64,000 nt of DNA. Source: a phage. A model generated the notes under the pieces. The model was given only the letters and a program-made list of their open reading frames with translations. It had not been told where the DNA came from and did no database searches. Every line of letters starts with the position of its first letter. The first letter of the stretch is position 1. Location: the sequence record OZ346175.1, one strand, 5' to 3'. Shown here piece by piece: positions 25,207-62,210 of this stretch. Made by a program: the position numbers and the translations under genes.

Positions 25207-25659
25207 CTATTTAACCTCAAAAACTGGTTCAAGAACCAATATAAAGTCTACACAGTAATCTTCTTCATCCAGAATACCATCAAAGTTCTTAGGAACGAAG
25301 TCGAAGAGGCTCATAACAAAACAGTCAGAAGTGACCTTGATAGTTCCTCCCATGTTTTCTACAGTTAATATTGTACGGCTTTCTGTTACCTCCCTCAGAA
25401 GATTACCCACAAAGTCATCTAAGAAGTACTTCATTAGCGACTTGAAACCTTTAGGGTAATCTGTACCAGAGTATGTTTCAATCTGTGGTACAAGTTTAAC
25501 ATTTATACTAGTCTTTGTTAAGAACGTTTTAGAGAACATACTATCAGGTAGCTTACAAACAGTCTTTCCAGTACCTTCATGCTCAATCTCAACAAAACCA
25601 GCTTCATCGCCACATGTAACTATTTTAAAAGATGCTTCATTCTCATACTGTGAAGCCAT
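25207..25659 (-). CDS. hypothetical protein
   Basis: 150 aa ORF in leftward early block. Confidence 0.5.
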   Translation of the reverse strand: MASQYENEASFKIVTCGDEAGFVEIEHEGTGKTVCKLPDSMFSKTFLTKTSINVKLVPQIETYSGTDYPKGFKSLMKYFLDDFVGNLLREVTESRTILTVENMGGTIKVTSDCFVMSLFDFVPKNFDGILDEEDYCVDFILVLEPVFEVK

Positions 25660-25721
25660 AAACTTTTAAGCATTTCTTTAAGGAAGTCTGCATGAGCATC
25701 TTGTAAGAAGATATCAATCAT
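25620..25721 (-). CDS. possible small ORF (33 aa)
   Basis: ATG preceded by AGGTGA SD at 6 nt spacing; overlaps downstream gene start; below ORF-track size cutoff. Confidence 0.25.
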   Translation of the reverse strand: MIDIFLQDAHADFLKEMLKSLWLHSMRMKHLLK

Positions 25722-31070: not shown

Positions 31071-31338
31071 CATCTGGTCAATACACTCGCAAGGTGTACC
31101 AGTTCTCTTATGAACTTCTCCGCATTTCTACGGAGTGTCGGACTATATCACGTAGTAGTAATACTACCGTTGCACTTGGGAATGGTCATTGGCTTACCAC
31201 CCTACTCTACTCAGTTCATACGTTAAGTATGCTTTTCGATAGTCTCTGAACGTTCCTCTTAAGAGGCTTCGCTGCTGATTACCATATCTTTACAGACTTA
31301 GGCTTCCAGCAATTCACAACGTTTTACATGCGCCACTG
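31071..31338 (-). ncRNA. group I self-splicing intron (ORF-less) within DNA polymerase gene
   Basis: On - strand RNA: 5' exon ends ...AUGCGU pairing with IGS GCGCAU (U.G at splice site); core elements P-like UUGCUGGAAG, Q AAUCAGCAGCG, R GUUCAGAGACUA, S GAUAUAGUCC; terminal G; splicing restores ...AKNGIYA-LLFGAGDEK. Confidence 0.75.
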
Positions 31339-33481
31339 ACGCATAAATGCCATTTTTGGCTTTCTTACGACCTTTTGTAATCTCGTGGAGAAGTTCCTCA
31401 TCCTGTGTCTCCCTACAACGAACAATATCTTCTTCCTTGTTCAGACCAAAGTAAATACTGTTCAGTGTATGCGCATCAGTCCCTGTGTAGACTTCATAGA
31501 GGTCGTTCTCAGCATCATAACGAAGATACTTGTCAGTTTCTGGATTAAGGTGCTTATCAAGATGTTTGCAATAATATCTCCCATCTTCTTGCTTGGTAAA
31601 TTCTACTGACTCTTTACCTTCAGTTACTGCTTTAGTGAACTCTTTATCACCCATAAAGTTACACAGTAAAACAAGCTGTGCAGAGTTCTGGTCAACAGAA
31701 ACAATGTTAGTCCCCTCTTCACAAATCCACACTGCCCTCATAGGTGCTCCATAGACAGCAGCACCAGACGGTACGTTTACAATACCATATTGTGTCATAC
31801 GTCCAGTTGAAGTACCAAACACCATTGCACCAGCACTAAGGCGACCATCAGGACGAATCTGGTTCAACCAACCTTTTTCATCATCCTTTGAGTTCTCAAT
31901 AGTTCTGCGTCGGTGCATCAAAGTATAGTACTTAGCAATCTTCTGTCCAAGCTCACCTTCAATCGTATCATAAGATGATTCAGTAAGTTTTGGTGAAGTA
32001 CGGATTAAGCAAGGCTCAAGCAAATCTGTGTACTTCTTCACAGACCAGTTATGCTCAATGTACTGTACACCTTCATGTTCAACATAACTCAAACCACACC
32101 GCTCAACCATTTCCTGCCACTTAGGATGTTTTGTAATCATCTTTTTATTGTCTTTGAAACGACAAACTTTGACAGGGCGACCATCTGAATCTTTCTTGTA
32201 GTTCCAGTCATCTGGAATCCAACCAACTGATTTCAAGTAGTCTTTAACAACTGCTACCTGAGTCATATGAGAAACTTCAAACTCAATTGGTGTATATGGT
32301 GCATCAATCAAACCTGTGTAGCGACTTGACTCAAGTTCAAAGTGATTGACAACGTGACTGTTATAGTACTTCACAGTCTTGACTGTTTTTACTGGTTTCC
32401 AGTCTTTGCATTTTTTGCCAATCTTTGCATTCAACTCGTTGCAGATTGCACGAGCATCCTTCATCGCTACAAAACCCTCTTTGTACTCTTCACCAGTTAC
32501 AGAGTTGGTTGGTGTATAGCAATTTCTCTTTTCAATGTTAAAAATCTTTGTAGTTGGCTTACCAAATGGCTTGATTTCATATGTCTGCATCTCACCATTA
32601 CGTACCTGCTGACGATACTTTGTCTTAGGGTACTTGGTAATTCTTTTCAGTCCATCTGCATGACCAAATGCTTCAACATACTCATTCCAAGCTTTTGCAA
32701 ACTCTTCTCCAGTGACTTTACCTTTGGTCTTAATAGTTGGAGGTAGATGTGGTTCAACCTCTGAAGCAAGCTCATTAGTCAACTTGTCAAGCTCCTTTAC
32801 ATGGAACTCCATAAGCTCTTTATCAGCTTTCCAACCATTGATAGCTTGTTGACTCATCCAGAAAGATGTTTCTTTAGCTCGCATGTAAGTTTCATAAGTG
32901 TCTATGCCACACTTCTTAAGCTTGAGATACTCGTTATCAAGTGCCCGTTTAGTTTTGGCGTTAATACGGATATCTTCTACAACACGAGTGAAGATTTCTG
33001 CATTCCACACACCCCAATGCTCAATCTCTGGCTTACGAACACCAACACGAGCACCCCATGCAGCCAAGCCATGAGCACCTTTATAACCCTTTGGAGTTGG
33101 TCTATCCATCCACTGAACACGAGACTGGATAAGAGAATCCTGAAAGAAATTACTCCACGGCTTACACTTTGGATTATCAAAGTTCCATAAATCAGGTGCA
33201 ATGTGATTAAAAACCCACCAGTCATAACCGAGACCGTTATGGATGCAAAGACGTTTTGCCTTTAACGCAAATTCAACACCTTCACGTAAGCCACCCTTAA
33301 TGTACTTGGTATACTTGTGACCGAGGATAGGTTCATCCGTAAAGACCCATACAGGTGGCTCTTCATCGTCAGATTTATAGTCTGCGAAAGCCATTACGTG
33401 CACTTTAGTGAACTCAAGGAGTAAACCATCAGTTTCTGTATCACCAACTAAATGTAAGTTTTTAAAATCTACGTTTTCCAT
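31339..33481 (-). CDS. DNA polymerase (family A) exon 1, 3'-5' exonuclease and N-terminal polymerase domains
   Basis: Exo I motif LVGDTETDGL; ends in motif B start GRKKAKNGIYA; start set at ATG 33481 with GAGGGAG SD (track start 33511). Confidence 0.85.
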
Positions 33482-53449: not shown

Positions 53450-55231
53450 ATGACTAAATCGCTTTACGCAGTACCAGCAGGTTTAAACGCAGATGCTTAC
53501 AAATCTGGTCATGTTTACCAGTACCCTAGTGCAACAGAATACTTGATGTTCAACCTGACACCACGTAGTGACAAATGGTTTAACAGCCCCTTAGCAATTG
53601 ATGGTGTAGTAGCTTTTGGTATTCAACGTTTCGTTAAAGATTACCTGATAGACCACTGGAACGCCACTTTCTTTGAACGTGATAAAAAAGAAGCAGTTGA
53701 CGAAATCTTAGAAGTCATGAATGGTGTTCTGGGTAAAGATGCTATTGGTCGAGAGCATTGGGAAGCACTTCACGATTTAGGCTATCTACCAGTTGAAGTA
53801 TACGCTGTAGAAGAAGGTACAGTTGTTCCTATGCGTGTTCCAATGATTGTCTTCCAGAACACTGTTTCAGGTTTCCATTGGGTAGCAGGTTATCTGGAAG
53901 ATGCTTTCTCTGCTGAGATTTGGAAGACTTGCACCATTGCAACTATTGCATTGCACTACAAACGTATCTGTAAGAAGTGGGCTGACCTTACTTGCGACAA
54001 TGACTTACATTTACCTTATCAGTGCCATGACTTTGCTATGCGTGGTATGTCCGGCTTTACCGATGACGCATTTAATGCTGTAGGTCACTTAACCAGCTTT
54101 AAAGGAACTGATAGCTTCCCTGCTGTATACACGGCTAAACGCATCTATGGACAGTCTTACCCAATTTCTGATATTGGTAGTTCTGTACCAGCCACTGAAC
54201 ACTCTGTAATGTGTGCAAACATTGCTTGGGAAGGTGGTAATGAATTGATTGAAGAGGAAAGACGCTTTAAAGGTGAGTTGCAAACCTTCCGTCGTTTCTT
54301 AACAGAAACTTACCCAACTGGTATTGCAAGTATTGTTTCAGATACTTATAACTTCTGGAGAACTGTGTCAGAAATCTTACCAGCACTTCGTAAAGAAATT
54401 ATGGAACGTGATGGTAAGCTGGTAATTCGCCCTGACTCTGGAGACCCTGTACATATTGTCACAGGCTATAAAGCAATCCACTTAGAGTGTGCTAAGAAGG
54501 CTTATTATGAGCACATAAGCAAGCTGGAAGCTAGTGACACAATGTTGAATGCTGTTCTGAACATGAAGCTTGAAAACATCAACTATGGTATTGCTGGATG
54601 GCTACTGTCAGAAGGCTACGAAATGGTTGTTGACAGAGAAGACTTTGAAGTTGCTGATACAGTGATGTTGAAAAATGCTTATATGGTTGGCTCTGCAAAC
54701 GTTGTAACACGTCCTGTAGCAGAGATTGATGGAGCTATTAAGACCCTGTACAACATCTTCGGAGGGACTATTAACTCTAAAGGGTTTAAGGTACTGGATG
54801 AGCACATCGGCCTTATCTATGGTGACTCTATCACGCTGGAACGTGCAAACGAAATCCTGAAGCGTCTGTATGAAATGGGTTTTGCAAGCTCTAACGTAGT
54901 GTTTGGTGTAGGCTCTTACACTTACCAGTACATGACTCGTGACACCTTTGCATTTGCTGTCAAAGCAACTCTTGCAAGCATTGGTGGTAAAGAGATTATG
55001 CTTGCAAAAGACCCTAAAACAGATAGTGGTGTTAAGAAATCTGCCTTTGGTGGTGTAGCACCTATGTGGGATGGTGATAAGCTGAAAGCTGTAGATGGCT
55101 ATGGATTCCAGAGTTTTGCAGATGTACTTGACCACCAAGCTTGTGCTTTACGTTTAGTCTTTAGCGACTCTGAGCAGTTCGGTTATACAACTCTTGGAGA
55201 TATTCGAAATAATATTGACAAGCAGCTTTAA
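53450..55231 (+). CDS. nicotinamide phosphoribosyltransferase-family protein (NAMPT-like; candidate Namat)
   Basis: N-terminal DAYKSGH (cf. NAMPT DSYKVTH); 593 aa. Confidence 0.8.
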   Translation: MTKSLYAVPAGLNADAYKSGHVYQYPSATEYLMFNLTPRSDKWFNSPLAIDGVVAFGIQRFVKDYLIDHWNATFFERDKKEAVDEILEVMNGVLGKDAIGREHWEALHDLGYLPVEVYAVEEGTVVPMRVPMIVFQNTVSGFHWVAGYLEDAFSAEIWKTCTIATIALHYKRICKKWADLTCDNDLHLPYQCHDFAMRGMSGFTDDAFNAVGHLTSFKGTDSFPAVYTAKRIYGQSYPISDIGSSVPATEHSVMCANIAWEGGNELIEEERRFKGELQTFRRFLTETYPTGIASIVSDTYNFWRTVSEILPALRKEIMERDGKLVIRPDSGDPVHIVTGYKAIHLECAKKAYYEHISKLEASDTMLNAVLNMKLENINYGIAGWLLSEGYEMVVDREDFEVADTVMLKNAYMVGSANVVTRPVAEIDGAIKTLYNIFGGTINSKGFKVLDEHIGLIYGDSITLERANEILKRLYEMGFASSNVVFGVGSYTYQYMTRDTFAFAVKATLASIGGKEIMLAKDPKTDSGVKKSAFGGVAPMWDGDKLKAVDGYGFQSFADVLDHQACALRLVFSDSEQFGYTTLGDIRNNIDKQL

Positions 55232-55245
55232 AAGTATATGATAAG

Positions 55246-55267
55246 AGGCTCCTACGGGAGCCTTTTT
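55246..55267 (+). terminator. rho-independent terminator
   Basis: AGGCTCC-TACG-GGAGCCT hairpin plus TTTTT. Confidence 0.7.
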
Positions 55268-55284: not shown

Positions 55285-55620
55285 ATGAAAATCAAAGAAA
55301 TGAACATTAACGTTGTCCTAGAAGAACGTTGGGAGAACATTAAGAAACCTGAAGATGGTAAAAAGTTCCTTAACAAAATTTTAGTAGCAGCTAAAGAAGA
55401 ACTGACTGGCAAGATTGCAGCAGCAATCACAATAAAAATCTGTGTAAAAGGTCTTCCACAACATCACCAATTTGCACTTGACGAGTTTAAAGGAAGCTTC
55501 TACAATCCAAACAAACAGATGCTTGAAAGTAACTTTGCAGTGTCTACAAGTATCGTTCATGACAGAAGCTTTATCCTTTACAAGAATATGAGAGGTGAGT
55601 CATGCAAGCATATTGGATAG
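55285..55620 (+). CDS. hypothetical protein
   Basis: 111 aa ORF. Confidence 0.5.
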   Translation: MKIKEMNINVVLEERWENIKKPEDGKKFLNKILVAAKEELTGKIAAAITIKICVKGLPQHHQFALDEFKGSFYNPNKQMLESNFAVSTSIVHDRSFILYKNMRGESCKHIG

Positions 55621-55778
55621 AAATTTTACTGTCACTCGGTAGTGTAGCAGTCCTTGTTTATCTTCTTTGTAAGTACTTTGCAGAACACAAGAAGTGTGAC
55701 TACTGTAACGGAGAAGGGTATACAAGAGCAGGTTGTTGCCCTATGTGTGGTGGTTCTGGTAAAATGTTTAATAAGTAA
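55602..55778 (+). CDS. small membrane protein with DnaJ-type zinc-finger repeats (58 aa)
   Basis: SD GAGGTGA; hydrophobic N-terminus ILLSLGSVAVLVYLL then two CxxCxGxG motifs (CDYCNGEG, CPMCGGSG); below ORF-track cutoff. Confidence 0.45.
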   Translation: MQAYWIEILLSLGSVAVLVYLLCKYFAEHKKCDYCNGEGYTRAGCCPMCGGSGKMFNK

Positions 55779-55806
55779 TTTAACAGTAAACTAAGAGGAA
55801 AGTATT

Positions 55807-56553
55807 ATGCGCATGGTAAATGACCACGCAGAAGTGATTAAGAGTTCAACTTCTTTAGAGACGTCTCAAGCACAGATTACAATGACACCTGAGATGTTCA
55901 GCCTTTTGAGTTCTGGTGTATACACCTTTAAAGAAAGGGCAGTGATTCGTGAACTGTCATGTAACGCAGTAGATGCTCAGAAAGAAGCTGGAAAAGAGAA
56001 CATCCCATTCCATGTGCATTTACCTACTCGTTTTGAGCCTTACTTCGAAGTTCGTGATTTTGGAACTGGATTGACTCATGATAAAGTAATGAGTTTGTAT
56101 CTGAACTATGGGGCTTCTACGAAGAATGACTCCAATGATTACATTGGTGCAATGGGTATCGGCTCAAAATCCCCATTTGCAATTGCTCAGTCATTCACAG
56201 TATCTAGCTATGTTGATGGTGTTGTTAATAAGTACTCTGTTTACCTTGAGAATGGTATCCCTCAAGTAACTAAGCTTACTACCAACCCAACAAATGAACC
56301 CAATGGTTTAGCTGTACGTGTGGCAGTTGCTGACCATCGTATTTCAAAGTTCTTTGAAGAGGCTGGTCACGTATACTCATACTTTGCTGTAAAACCAGAA
56401 AGTAACATTGTATATGATGATGTATTAGCAGATATGAATGTCATTGCCCGTGAAGAGGGTGTTTATGATGCTATGATTCATAAGCAAAGCTGGCGTTCTA
56501 GTGGCAACAGGACAGAGTTTAATGTGGTGATGGGTAATATTGCCACCCAGTGA
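55807..56553 (+). CDS. rIIA: rIIA-like protein, N-terminal GHKL ATPase part
   Basis: Bergerat-fold motifs: N-box ELSCNAVDAQ, G1 VRDFGTGL, G2 GAMGIGSKSPF; 248 aa ending in TGA. Confidence 0.5.
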   Translation: MRMVNDHAEVIKSSTSLETSQAQITMTPEMFSLLSSGVYTFKERAVIRELSCNAVDAQKEAGKENIPFHVHLPTRFEPYFEVRDFGTGLTHDKVMSLYLNYGASTKNDSNDYIGAMGIGSKSPFAIAQSFTVSSYVDGVVNKYSVYLENGIPQVTKLTTNPTNEPNGLAVRVAVADHRISKFFEEAGHVYSYFAVKPESNIVYDDVLADMNVIAREEGVYDAMIHKQSWRSSGNRTEFNVVMGNIATQ

Positions 56554-58172
56554 ACATGGAAGCATTACTTGGTGATGATTTCTTCAAAGTCTTGCCAGAG
56601 TTTTTCCGTAGGAGCGTAGACCTTGTAAACATCTACATGCCTATTGGTTCAGTTGCTATTGCAGCTTCTCGTGAAGCATTGCAGATGAATGACACGACAA
56701 AAAATGTTATCATTGAGGCTACTAAAAAGATAACTGAAGCCATTACAAAGGATGTTATCAAGAAAGTTAATAGCCAACCTACACTCATGGATGCTGCACA
56801 GGCTTATGCTGAGTTACGTTTGAACTCACGAGAGATGTTTAATGCTGTGTGTCCAAAGCTAGAGTGGGGTGGCGTTAAGCTTGATTCTCTGGAAGAAGAA
56901 TTGCTAAACATTCGTCGTGGAATTATCTACGCAGAAGACGGCTCAGTCATTTACGAACGTGACGGTAAAGGTAATATTAAGGTTGATAGGAACGGGAACA
57001 ATATCCCTAAAGTAGATTATCTTTATGACCCAGTTGCTTATGTCAAGTTTAACTCTTTAGAGAGTAAGATTCGTGCAACAGCACTATCCTACACTCAAGA
57101 GGCGAGCATGTTCAACATCTTTGGTGCAATGCGCAAAAGCCAGATTGGACAGTTTTTGTTCGTGATTAATGACCGTCGAAATAAAAATGGCACTGAGAAG
57201 ACTGTTGGGCGTAACCAAATCTTGCGTGGTGCATGTCGAGACTATGCAAGTGAGTCTAGTCTGTTTCACAGATACAATGGTATTGTCTTTGTATTCTCGA
57301 CTGAAAAAGAGTTAGATGACTTAATCAATCTGCACAAACTTGATAAAAGCTTGCTAAAGATTGTGAAAATGTCTGATAAGGAACACCATTACCAGCGTAA
57401 AGAAGCTGTAAGAGGTGTTGTAAAACTCTGGAAAGCTGTTCCAGCAGAAGGTGTAGCCTCCTACAAAGAGGTGTCAGAGGACTTAGACACAATTGAAGAA
57501 CCTCAGCTTTACATTAAGGCAATTGGTGACACAGTTGATGGCGAATGTTTTTGCTCATCTCCAGAAGATGTAGCTAAGTCAGTTGCCAATGTCATTGAAA
57601 AGACAGTCTATGTTTTCCGAAAAGCAAATTGGAAAAAGATACCAGAAGACTGGATTGAAGTAGATGAGAAGCTCTTGAGCAACAGCTTAACTAATGTTCA
57701 CTGGATTAATCATAACAGGTATATGACACGTATCTATATGAATGGTGTCCTAGACCTGACAAGCAGTTGGATTATTGCCAGAAACTTTACGTTCAATAAC
57801 AGGAAGATTTCTCGTGGCTATTGCTATTCACGGGATACAAACAAAACTATCTTCCTAGAAGGTAATGAAGAGGCTGTAGAGGCAATGTTTGGTAAAATCC
57901 AGTATGTTGCTGCACCATTTGCATACACTTACACTATTAGTGTGTTGAAAACTTTGAAAGATTGTCTTGACAACGATACAAAGCTTTACAAGAAAATTAA
58001 GAAAGCTGGTGACCGTATGGTTATTAAGGTGACAAACTACCTTTCAAAAAGAAAACAAGAAAACTTCTTGCTTTCCCATTTAGATTGGAATAAAGTGTCA
58101 CCCATCGAAGTGAGTAAGTTCTTAGGTTTTGATGTGAAGTGTGTTCCAGAAGGAACTACAGTTTACGATTAA
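56550..58172 (+). CDS. rIIA-like protein, C-terminal part (separate ORF in -1 frame)
   Basis: 540 aa ORF starting GTG 56550 / ATG 56556, immediately after stop of GHKL ORF. Confidence 0.45.
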   Translation: MNMEALLGDDFFKVLPEFFRRSVDLVNIYMPIGSVAIAASREALQMNDTTKNVIIEATKKITEAITKDVIKKVNSQPTLMDAAQAYAELRLNSREMFNAVCPKLEWGGVKLDSLEEELLNIRRGIIYAEDGSVIYERDGKGNIKVDRNGNNIPKVDYLYDPVAYVKFNSLESKIRATALSYTQEASMFNIFGAMRKSQIGQFLFVINDRRNKNGTEKTVGRNQILRGACRDYASESSLFHRYNGIVFVFSTEKELDDLINLHKLDKSLLKIVKMSDKEHHYQRKEAVRGVVKLWKAVPAEGVASYKEVSEDLDTIEEPQLYIKAIGDTVDGECFCSSPEDVAKSVANVIEKTVYVFRKANWKKIPEDWIEVDEKLLSNSLTNVHWINHNRYMTRIYMNGVLDLTSSWIIARNFTFNNRKISRGYCYSRDTNKTIFLEGNEEAVEAMFGKIQYVAAPFAYTYTISVLKTLKDCLDNDTKLYKKIKKAGDRMVIKVTNYLSKRKQENFLLSHLDWNKVSPIEVSKFLGFDVKCVPEGTTVYD

Positions 58173-58177
58173 AGTGT

Positions 58178-58207
58178 TTGACAAGGGGCTTCAAAGCCCC
58201 TTAGAAT
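58178..58207 (+). promoter_or_regulatory. sigma70-like promoter TTGACA-N18-TAGAAT with palindrome in spacer
   Basis: -35 TTGACA 58178-58183, spacer AGGGGCTTCAAAGCCCCT (inverted repeat), -10 TAGAAT 58202-58207. Confidence 0.5.
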
Positions 58208-58251
58208 ATCCTCAAAAAATGATTTATTAACTAACAAGAGAGAGTAATAAG

Positions 58252-59334
58252 ATGACTACTAAAACTAAAGCACAGATTGACGCAGAAATTTACAAACTGG
58301 TTAAAGAAGGTAAGCTGACTAAAACAGCTATTGCACAGAAATTTAATACTTCAACCCGTTCAGTCGGTCGTGCTGTAGAGCGTCATGAAGCAATATTAAA
58401 AGGGAATAAGAAGGTAACTTCTACACCAGCTACGAAGACTTTGAAGCAAGTTGCTAAGACCTTTAAAAAGAAAGCTGACAAACCAGTTGAAAAGGTTGTT
58501 AAAGATTCTGTACAGAAAGCTCCAGTAAATAAACTGCACGAAGCTATGCAGAAAGATGACAAGATTGAGTACATGATTACTGGTGACTCTGTAATTATGA
58601 CTTACGGTTCAGAATCTGAAATTGTTGAGTCTACTCATCCGAACTATCAAGAGATTGTAGTTCATGTTGTGAAAGGTGAGTTCAAGAAAGCCTTTGAACT
58701 GATGAACATTCGTAAGTCTATCGAAAACTTCACGCAGGGAGCTATCACAATCAAAGGTGATAAGCTATTCTACGGTGCTGTTGAGATGCGTTCTACTCTG
58801 GTTGACCGTATACTTCACATGATGAAAACTGGTGATAAAGGTTTTGAACGACTTGTAATGTTCTTCGAAAAACTGATGGAAAACCCATCTAAAGATTCTG
58901 TAGAACAACTTTGGGGATTCATATCTCACCTTGATGTTGAAATTGATGAAGAAGGCTACATCATTGGTTGGAAGAAAGTCTCTACTCGTGAAGGCAAGCT
59001 GGTTGACTCCCGCACCTGCAAAGTACCTAATGATTTGGGTAACATTGTAGAAATGCCACGTTGGATGGTTGATAATAACCGTAACGTGACTTGCTCTCAA
59101 GGTCTTCACGTTGGTGCTTGGGATTATGTTCGTTACTTCTCAGGTGATACAATTCTGAAGGTTCGTGTCCATCCACGAGACGTTGTATCCGTACCAACTG
59201 ATTACAACGATATGAAGATGCGTTCGTCTCGTTATGAAGTTGCAGCAATCGTTGATAATCAACGTAAAGTGCTGAAAGAATGGGATGGCAAGACTGAAGC
59301 TTTGCATGACGTAAACGTGAAATCTAATAAGTAA
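58252..59334 (+). CDS. hypothetical protein, possibly rIIB-like
   Basis: 360 aa with HTH-like N-terminus; position after rIIA-like ORFs; assignment from synteny only. Confidence 0.35.
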   Translation: MTTKTKAQIDAEIYKLVKEGKLTKTAIAQKFNTSTRSVGRAVERHEAILKGNKKVTSTPATKTLKQVAKTFKKKADKPVEKVVKDSVQKAPVNKLHEAMQKDDKIEYMITGDSVIMTYGSESEIVESTHPNYQEIVVHVVKGEFKKAFELMNIRKSIENFTQGAITIKGDKLFYGAVEMRSTLVDRILHMMKTGDKGFERLVMFFEKLMENPSKDSVEQLWGFISHLDVEIDEEGYIIGWKKVSTREGKLVDSRTCKVPNDLGNIVEMPRWMVDNNRNVTCSQGLHVGAWDYVRYFSGDTILKVRVHPRDVVSVPTDYNDMKMRSSRYEVAAIVDNQRKVLKEWDGKTEALHDVNVKSNK

Positions 59335-59343
59335 TTTCTTAAA

Positions 59344-59366
59344 AGGCTGCTTCGGCGGCCTTTTTT
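59344..59366 (+). terminator. rho-independent terminator
   Basis: GGCTGC-TTCG-GCGGCC hairpin plus TTTTTT. Confidence 0.7.
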
Positions 59367-61955: not shown

Positions 61956-62210
61956 ATGCAGATTAATGGAAGAGACTTTGTAGCCGTTTACTATGATAAC
62001 GATAAAGAAGTTGGTGTAGCACAGGTAACCTATGGCAATGGTAAGTGGCTATATGGAACAATCGCAGTAGTAGGAACAAGAAGTGATACAAAAACTTTTA
62101 AAGATTGTGTTGACCTTCTTGAAGAATCCATCCACAATCATTGGTGTCTGATATGGATGACTGACAATGAAGTGATGGAACGTTTCAAAAAAAAATTGAT
62201 ATCAACATAG
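61956..62210 (+). CDS. hypothetical protein
   Basis: 84 aa ORF. Confidence 0.45.
   Translation: MQINGRDFVAVYYDNDKEVGVAQVTYGNGKWLYGTIAVVGTRSDTKTFKDCVDLLEESIHNHWCLIWMTDNEVMERFKKKLIST

Follow-up and report, generated by a model that had tools for sequence, protein, structure and literature searches.

The rIIA-rIIB locus

The window, the whole 64,000-nt stretch of DNA analysed here, belongs to a Felixounavirus (Felix O1-type) genome whose nearest relative was found to be Escherichia phage vB_EcoM_LNA1 (LNA1). It shares the locus order of Felixounavirus phages, which runs from NAMPT through two small ORFs to rIIA, rIIB and a terminator, with rIIA lying at 55807-58172 on the + strand as a frameshifted gene of 2366 nt (2367 nt, or 788 codons, in relatives). 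The authentic rIIA start, ATG at 55807, stands 3' of a Shine-Dalgarno-like AAGAGGA (55793-55799, + strand) whose duplex with the 16S 3' end, at -6.0 kcal/mol, is comparable to those of neighbouring genuine starts. From this ATG, the 248-aa ORF1 (55807-56553, +) encodes authentic rIIA residues 1-246, the Hsp90-like GHKL ATPase part, with 100% identity to LNA1 rIIA, followed by an out-of-frame Thr-Gln and a TGA at 56551-56553. ORF2 (56550-58172, +), equivalent to authentic rIIA residues 249-788, lies in the -1 frame relative to ORF1, with a TAA at 56535-56537 and an open frame from 56538 onward. The earlier note had described two ORFs of 248 and 540 aa, the second in the -1 frame, and these coordinates were confirmed with one minor slip: 540 aa is the length from a GTG at 56550, which overlaps the ORF1 stop as GTGA, whereas the 3-nt gap that it placed after the stop belongs to an ATG at 56556, from which ORF2 has 538 aa. 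No + strand promoter-like site was detected between 55884 and 58178.

Downstream lies rIIB, the functional partner gene (58252-59334, +; PHROG 609 RIIB, E 9.4e-89), and the rIIA-rIIB unit is closed by a terminator-like hairpin with a T run (59341-59364, +), which has an annotated terminator as its counterpart in phages Barry and Meda. The rIIB gene carries a 34-nt deletion after 59308 that replaces its last 17 aa by 8 others; of 214 matching records, the 30 best that were listed all lack this deletion (spanning 175 nt where the query has 141). We considered whether rIIA and rIIB had both been knocked out, as a sign of rII decay, and down-weighted this idea; the rIIB loss is limited to a tail with no conservation beyond the genus, and so gives no independent sign of lost rII function. 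The exact ORF1, ORF2 (538 aa) and rIIB proteins had no identical entry on record.

Both ORFs were found to belong to the rIIA family, as the earlier note had proposed. ORF1 matched positions 1-239 (E 3.6e-112) and ORF2 positions 249-716 (E 4.2e-66) of the PHROG 612 'RIIA' profile, and as these matches are collinear and non-overlapping they are not due to chance. Together they follow the whole family profile with rIIB directly downstream, and a single rIIA CDS is annotated at the corresponding gene in phages FSL SP-107 and UAB_Phi87. The single polypeptide of about 600-800 aa expected of the family is present here as 248 + 540 aa, and is recovered once one missing T is restored. A protein search with ORF1, whose hits were all short or partial proteins (136-420 aa), had first hinted that stand-alone N-terminal modules are common; this was overturned by an exhaustive search of representatives, in which full-length proteins dominate (141 of the 150 best representatives, drawn from 14,405 homologues, are 587-816 aa long with this region at the N terminus). 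By sequence comparison, ORF1 and ORF2 are thus the two parts of one normal, already known Felixounavirus rIIA gene, the same gene at the same locus as in LNA1 (MZ311863), UAB_Phi87 (YP_009150114.1) and Bas63/JohannRWettstein (gene 85); it is one 788-codon ORF in those records, whereas here it is broken at codon 247.

The GHKL/Bergerat motifs noted earlier in ORF1 are present and fall on conserved columns of the family. ELSCNAVDAQ (aa 49-58), DFGTGL (aa 84-89) and GAMGIGSKSPF (aa 114-124) supply the N (ExxxNxxD), G1 (DxGxG) and G2 (GxxGxG) boxes, and residues E49, N53, D56, D84, G86, G88, G114, G117 and G119 were invariant or nearly invariant among 80 homologues. With the rIIA family profile, the N box (RELxxNxxDA) and G1 box (DxGxG) aligned to TRAP1 (E 1.9e-5); a phmmer search of PDB sequences with ORF1 gave no match, the family profile alone reaching Hsp90. 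As a stand-in for rIIA, an AlphaFold model was made of the 790-aa homologue P0042, which is not this phage's protein but is 80% identical to it over the N-terminal part (pLDDT 89.5). This model aligned to full-length TRAP1/Hsp90 over approximately 600-700 columns (Foldseek E 7.5e-19, probability 1.00). The likeness to the Hsp90 family (TRAP1, HtpG, Hsc82) lies in the N and G1 boxes and the modelled fold; the differences are a sequence identity of just 11-17%, low global TM-scores (0.3-0.4) and Pfam domain models that stay below threshold, with no family found for ORF1 or ORF2 at E <= 0.01. We know of no chaperone activity of rIIA. The GHKL signature of rIIA is genuine and, as modelled, belongs to an Hsp90-like fold, in keeping with the N-terminal GHKL ATPase of T4 rIIA (PMC7824862), a member of the same family (PHROG 612, 'RIIA lysis inhibitor').

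A missing base in the Tyr247 codon

Alignment with six relatives placed the break at a single T. Where the relatives read GCC-TAC-CCA, with TAC as the Tyr247 codon, this phage reads GCC-ACC-CAG-TGA, the T being absent between 56544 and 56545. The earlier note had suspected an indel near a CCACCC run; an indel was indeed found there, within CCACCC, although this string lies at 56543-56548 and not at 56544-56550. The missing T belongs between a C and an A, outside any homopolymer, and the site has neither a GATC nor a CCWGG motif; it is therefore not an indel within a simple-sequence repeat or homopolymer of at least 6 nt, as a contingency locus would have.

The surrounding sequence is otherwise that of an intact gene. 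The missing T was the sole gap in the 8,079-nt block that blastn aligned with LNA1, and nucleotide identity to LNA1 was 98.8% over 55600-58400. Re-insertion of the T gave a 788-aa protein with 100% amino-acid identity to LNA1 rIIA, all 13 nucleotide differences between the two genes being synonymous, and ORF2 showed no secondary decay. Of 205 matching phage records, the 60 best that were listed all had the T (each spanning 122 nt where the query has 121), and the pattern of the intact form had 12 matches in IMG/VR, while the deleted form had no exact match in IMG/VR, metagenome contigs or genome contigs. As the deletion is absent from all other sequences searched, it points to a recent knock-out or a sequencing error, rather than to a divided gene or programmed frameshifting.

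The position of the break is itself telling. Tyr247 was invariant and Gly243 nearly invariant among 80 rIIA representatives, and in the P0042 model residues 245-249 form a beta-strand within a 10-residue block of pLDDT 94. Judged from this conservation and the predicted structure, the break hits a conserved, structured motif (the MGNIAYP strand) and not a linker. We are highly confident that a gene which is normally undivided has lost one base here, and that neither an evolved split nor a recoding site is involved. This agrees with the expectation of the earlier note that in T4-type rIIA the two regions form one polypeptide; aligned to rIIA homologues across the break, both halves match the family and the relatives have a single uninterrupted ORF.

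Other rIIA genes annotated or called as two ORFs, each with a one-base deletion when compared with its nearest relatives, were found in Escherichia phage MET-P1-301 (PV700625), vB_EcoM_ULIM9 (OQ850288) and Logan contig SRR27009557_3065 (L026). Their breaks fall at different positions, after approximately codon 309 in MET-P1-301, 503 in ULIM9 and 290 in the Logan contig, as against 247 here, and two of the three lie in A5 runs. The Logan contig, the closest 'split' match, was rejected as a natural split, since by comparison with phage ESh21 it too has lost one base. These splits are independent events and do not represent a common arrangement.

Origin of the two-frame layout

The reading that we favour, at about an even chance and as judged from sequence comparison, is that the deletion is physically present in the phage DNA as a real, very recent mutation of the stock. 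The chief competitor, quite possible although short of an even chance, is that the T is missing only from the consensus, through an error of sequencing or assembly, and that the phage has an intact rIIA of 788 aa. The sequence alone does not decide between the two. The absence of the deletion from every other sequence searched is consistent with an error, and the identity of the repaired protein to LNA1 rIIA, with an undecayed ORF2, is what an artefact would equally predict. Frame-breaking homopolymer indels private to one sequence are the usual mark of read errors, and the window holds two such indels, a T5 to T4 change near 25663 and an A9 run near 62187, neither of which was shared by any of the 12 best relatives listed. 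One-base rIIA losses at A5 runs also occur in other records (two within 3.2 kb in MET-P1-301, one in ULIM9), and the closest record is flagged UNVERIFIED, carries no annotation and has the same arbitrary start coordinate. Against an artefact, the T was lost between C and A, away from any homopolymer and from GATC or CCWGG. Just two of the 238 homopolymer runs of at least 5 nt in the 64,000-nt window broke a frame relative to two relatives, the other 236 showing no frame-breaking difference, so that the assembly is not broadly error-prone at homopolymers and its consensus is otherwise good. The 34-nt rIIB deletion is likewise absent from the relatives listed but is unlike a base-calling error, which suggests that some of these indels are real. 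An apparent 'split' of the DNA polymerase gene was also examined as a frameshift error, and this was ruled out, as the gene contains a group I intron.

It is very unlikely that the deletion is real and that ribosomes, terminating at TGA 56551-56553, re-initiate at the GTG or ATG to produce fragments that assemble into an active rIIA. A shade less probable again is that a phage with the real deletion would keep rII function in this way, its Hsp90-like ATPase and C-terminal modules assembling non-covalently after re-initiation. The geometry would permit termination-reinitiation, as the stop adjoins both candidate starts (GTGA, with the ATG 3 nt on), the 540 codons of ORF2 are fully open, and gene calling gives two ORFs at a few rIIA-like loci that are more distant (e.g. 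L025, with 354 + 343 aa before rIIB). In the intact gene, however, the GTG and ATG are simply internal codons, for Val249 and Met251, and all relatives have them. ORF2 has no Shine-Dalgarno match, its calculated 16S duplex being +0.7 kcal/mol for the ATG and -3.7 kcal/mol, with poor spacing, for the GTG, as compared with -5 to -7.4 kcal/mol in six of seven annotated-type starts tested and -3.9 kcal/mol in the seventh; nor was a promoter-like site detected on the + strand over 55884-58178. The invariant Tyr247, together with Pro248, is missing from both chains, and the cut falls inside the predicted beta-strand. The layout was seen in no other sequence searched, which gives no sign of selection keeping it. 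Established T4 genetics also speaks against two chains: in Benzer's cis-trans test rIIA behaves as one cistron, so that its parts do not complement in trans. None of the features of an evolved split (a conserved split, its own ribosome-binding site, a break at a domain boundary) was found, and the earlier suggestion of a genuine split with coupled translation is thus disfavoured. Were a two-chain rIIA nonetheless to exist, rIIA would tolerate a cut within the conserved MGNIAYP strand, and this phage would offer a natural form for dissecting which half contacts rIIB or the defence system.

The least probable reading, to which we give almost no weight, is the programmed -1 ribosomal frameshift also raised by the earlier note, or a transcriptional slippage, fusing ORF1 to ORF2: ORF2 does lie in the -1 frame with a short overlap, as in the tail assembly chaperone (G/GT type) frameshifts, but those have a conserved slippery heptamer and conservation across relatives, whereas the overlap here (56538-56553, about 13 nt; TATTGCCACCCAGTGA) contains no X XXY YYZ heptamer or tRNA re-pairing site, its longest run (CCC) is too short for slippage, the downstream fold is unremarkable (56520-56640, 121 nt; -27.5 kcal/mol, while 200 shuffled sequences averaged -26.8 and 78 of them were at least as stable; z = -0.19), and every relative examined has one frame with the extra T and hence no conserved recoding signal.

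Consequences for rIIA function

If the deletion is a real mutation, loss of the T in the Tyr247 codon would cut rIIA into two reading frames. Ribosomes would end two codons past the shift, freeing a 248-aa N-terminal fragment, and the C-terminal 540 codons, having no ribosome-binding site of their own, could be translated only through inefficient re-initiation at the GTGA/ATG, if they are translated at all. Given the truncated N-terminal product, the poor ORF2 start and the predicted loss of Tyr247-Pro248 from either product, the rIIA allele is most likely null or strongly hypomorphic. Such a mutation would be tolerated, as rII is dispensable on ordinary laboratory hosts. In the Felixounavirus Bas63, in which rIIA acts with rIIB in counter-defence, knock-outs of rIIA and rIIB are viable and both genes are required only against QatABCD (bioRxiv 10.1101/2024.10.10.617714).

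A one-base indel with a truncated product is also the classic type of T4 rII mutant. Null frameshifts of T4 rIIA, which are viable and long established as mutants, grow on permissive hosts but fail on RexAB lysogens, against which rIIA protects; they have a hot spot at an A6 run, which serves as a reversible contingency locus (bioRxiv 10.1101/2025.10.21.683753). The T lost here lies in no repeat, and fast reversion is therefore not expected. The protection of T4 and Bas63 against membrane-acting or abortive defence is taken from the literature, the Felixounavirus phenotype coming from Bas63 against QatABCD only.

For annotation, 55807-58172 is best treated as one frameshifted rIIA (a pseudogene, or 'frameshift; possible sequencing error'), and as neither two genes nor a recoding site. 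In other respects the feature is a commonplace defect of a gene already well known. If the deletion is real, the isolate would represent a naturally occurring rIIA-defective Felixounavirus, predicted by analogy with Bas63 to fail on QatABCD-type hosts, which would bear on its host range and therapeutic use.

Layout of the rIIA locus and its one-base lesion

The window is the genome of a Felix O1-like phage (Felixounavirus), its first base coinciding with the start of the record of Escherichia phage vB_EcoM_LNA1 (MZ311863; LNA1), which was also the top match (98.8%) among the 256 phage records matched by a 55600-58400 query. As the earlier note described, the ORF list gave two ORFs, with ORF1 (248 aa; 55807-56553, + strand) running from an ATG to a TGA stop and ORF2 (540 aa; 56550-58172, + strand) following in the -1 frame from a GTG that overlaps this stop as GTGA; an alternative ATG at 56556, 3 nt past the ORF1 stop, gives 538 aa. 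The three ATPase motifs quoted in that note do lie in ORF1 (residues 49-58, 84-89 and 114-124), with small slips in its coordinates (the CCACCC string is 56543-56548). Both ORFs matched successive stretches of the same PHROGs profile, phrog_612 'RIIA lysis inhibitor' (ORF1, positions 1-239, E 3.6e-112; ORF2, positions 249-716, E 4.2e-66), confirming the rIIA identity, and the next ORF (58252-59334) is RIIB by PHROG match. A Pfam search gave no match at E 0.01 or better. Terminator-like hairpins (55243-55266 and 59341-59364) flank a unit that comprises two small ORFs together with rIIA and rIIB, with a sigma-70-like site (11/12; 58178-58207) between rIIA and rIIB and a nicotinamide phosphoribosyltransferase gene (53450-55231) just upstream of the rIIA locus.

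In the annotated relatives FSL SP-107 and UAB_Phi87, rIIA is a single CDS of 2367 nt (788 codons). Alignment with six relatives revealed one length difference within the gene, a T absent from the window between 56544 and 56545, so that the suspected indel near the CCACCC run was indeed found. Relatives read ATT GCC TAC CCA GTG AAC ATG (I A Y P V N M) at the junction and the window reads ATT GCC ACC CAG TGA. Over an 8,079-nt block aligned to LNA1 there is no gap other than the missing T, whose restoration in silico gave a 788-aa protein without a single amino-acid difference from LNA1 rIIA, all 13 nucleotide differences between the two genes being synonymous; the break is therefore either very recent or not real.

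Position of the break and the Hsp90-like fold

Across 80 aligned rIIA representatives, Tyr247 was invariant and Gly243 nearly so, in the motif MGNIAYP. Structure was considered on an AlphaFold model of P0042, a 790-aa homologue whose numbering equals that of the window protein over residues 1-246 (mean pLDDT 89.5, pTM 0.73). Here residues 245-249 are predicted as a beta-strand paired with 237-242 (block pLDDT 94), which, with the conservation of Tyr247, places the cut inside a conserved structural element rather than a linker. Both the ORF1 and ORF2 products lack Tyr247 and Pro248.

The GHKL signature proved real and specifically Hsp90-like. The family profile matched TRAP1 and other Hsp90 proteins (E 1.9e-5), its N-box-type and DxGxG-type stretches aligning to theirs (RELsCNAvDA with RELISNGSDA; vRDyGtGL with IQDTGVGM), and the P0042 model matched full-length TRAP1, Hsp90 and HtpG structures (Foldseek E 7.5e-19, about 600-700 columns). 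The whole model, not the N-terminal domain alone, aligned to full-length Hsp90/TRAP1, at 11-17% identity, which suggests that rIIA shares the N-middle-C layout of Hsp90. A published comparative analysis likewise described rIIA as an N-terminal GHKL ATPase with a variable C-terminal region (PMC7824862).

Mutation or artefact

We give about an even chance to the missing T being a real mutation; it may quite possibly be an artefact in the deposited sequence. The deleted form was found nowhere else: a 121-nt junction query matched 205 phage records, all 60 of those listed spanning 122 nt and therefore containing the T (five being identical to the window apart from it), and a degenerate deleted-form pattern had no exact match in IMG/VR, metagenome contigs or genome contigs, the T-containing pattern occurring in 12 IMG/VR contigs. 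An artefact is also favoured by an ORF2 free of decay, by the UNVERIFIED flag on the record nearest to the window, and by two more frame-breaking indels in the window, both in homopolymers and neither shared with any of the 12 best relatives listed. The first (T5 to T4 near 25663) frameshifts, at codon 19/20, a conserved 171-aa hypothetical gene homologous to UAB_Phi87 Phi87_113 (about 25210-25721, - strand), whereas each of the 12 best records listed, out of 195, has T5. The other is an A9 run at about 62187-62195, where every relative listed has two bases fewer; no other homopolymer in the 64-kb window exceeds 6. This run frameshifts a 107-aa ORF whose LNA1 counterpart is intact, and either a hypermutable tract or an error in the reads could account for it.

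Against an artefact, however, the lost T lies outside any homopolymer, and in a comparison with two relatives 236 of the 238 homopolymer runs of at least 5 in the window showed no difference that breaks a frame. Furthermore, rIIB (58252-59334) carries a 34-nt deletion at 59308/59309, near its 3' end, which is not a base-calling error and is not in the relatives listed (each of the 30 best listed, out of 214 records, has the 34 nt); no microhomology was found at its junction. It exchanges the last 17 aa (VIVGTAGELISQRKREI) for 8 others (DVNVKSNK), in a tail whose conservation does not extend beyond the genus (comparison with a Mooglevirus-like rIIB), so this loss is no proof of decay of the rII pair. 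Laboratory growth, too, does not require the rII genes: in Bas63, a Felixounavirus, plating falls on deletion of either rIIA or rIIB only if the host carries qatABCD, and then by 10^4-10^5 (bioRxiv 10.1101/2024.10.10.617714), and in T4, phages with rIIA null frameshifts are viable, RexAB alone selecting against them (bioRxiv 10.1101/2025.10.21.683753).

Elsewhere in the window, the DNA polymerase gene is interrupted by a group I intron (31118-31401, - strand; Rfam RF00028, E 3.6e-15, 64.2 bits where the gathering score is 50). In a tblastn comparison, residues 1-724 of the UAB_Phi87 polymerase align as far as 31340, and the alignment picks up again at 31071, in a different frame, with residues 725-909. 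The insert of 268 nt between them (31072-31339) leaves no room for a homing endonuclease ORF; as 97 phage records have it and UAB_Phi87 does not, it is a presence/absence polymorphism within the genus.

Split genes, coupling and recoding

That rIIA works here as a functional two-chain protein is very unlikely. Among 1.84 billion representatives, searched exhaustively, ORF1 had 14,405 homologues, and 141 of the best 150 were of 587-816 aa with the ORF1 region at the N terminus; a split rIIA is not normal in the family. A word-indexed search gave short proteins only, and four on contigs of at least 8.8 kb were examined. In a close relative, Logan contig SRR27009557_3065, rIIA was called as 293 + 496 aa, but one base is missing relative to phage ESh21 (99% identical), so this is another independent frameshift. 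One-base losses in A5 runs, at other positions, split rIIA in MET-P1-301 (PV700625) and ULIM9 (OQ850288). The deletions in these three Ounavirinae sequences are independent and at different codons, two of them in A5 runs; in MET-P1-301 the gene upstream of rIIA carries a second loss, also in an A run. Such splits occur sporadically and independently of one another and do not form a conserved architecture, and deposited sequences seem to contain a broken rIIA time and again, whether the cause is error or loss in the course of propagation. Together with the predicted position of the break, this speaks against the genuinely split gene that the earlier note had entertained. The GTG and ATG of ORF2 are the Val249 and Met251 codons of the intact protein and pair poorly with the anti-Shine-Dalgarno sequence (ATG, +0.7 kcal/mol; GTG, -3.7 kcal/mol at 16-nt spacing; neighbouring gene starts, six of seven at -5.1 to -7.4 and one at -3.9). 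No + strand promoter-like site was found between 55884 and 58178, and an ORF2 product could arise only through inefficient termination-reinitiation.

Recoding that joins ORF1 and ORF2 is highly improbable. A TAA at 56535-56537 closes the -1 frame and so limits the overlap to 56538-56553 (16 nt, TATTGCCACCCAGTGA), where there is no X XXY YYZ heptamer (longest run CCC), and the predicted folding of the downstream 121 nt is no more stable than that of shuffled sequences (z = -0.19), leaving the proposed programmed frameshift unsupported.

The rIIA locus of the window is a known gene, the rIIA of T4-type phages and Felixounavirus, with a known kind of lesion and no new gene arrangement. This one-base frameshift is of the classical rII mutant type, although it does not lie at a homopolymer hot spot, and in annotation 55807-58172 should read as one frameshifted rIIA.
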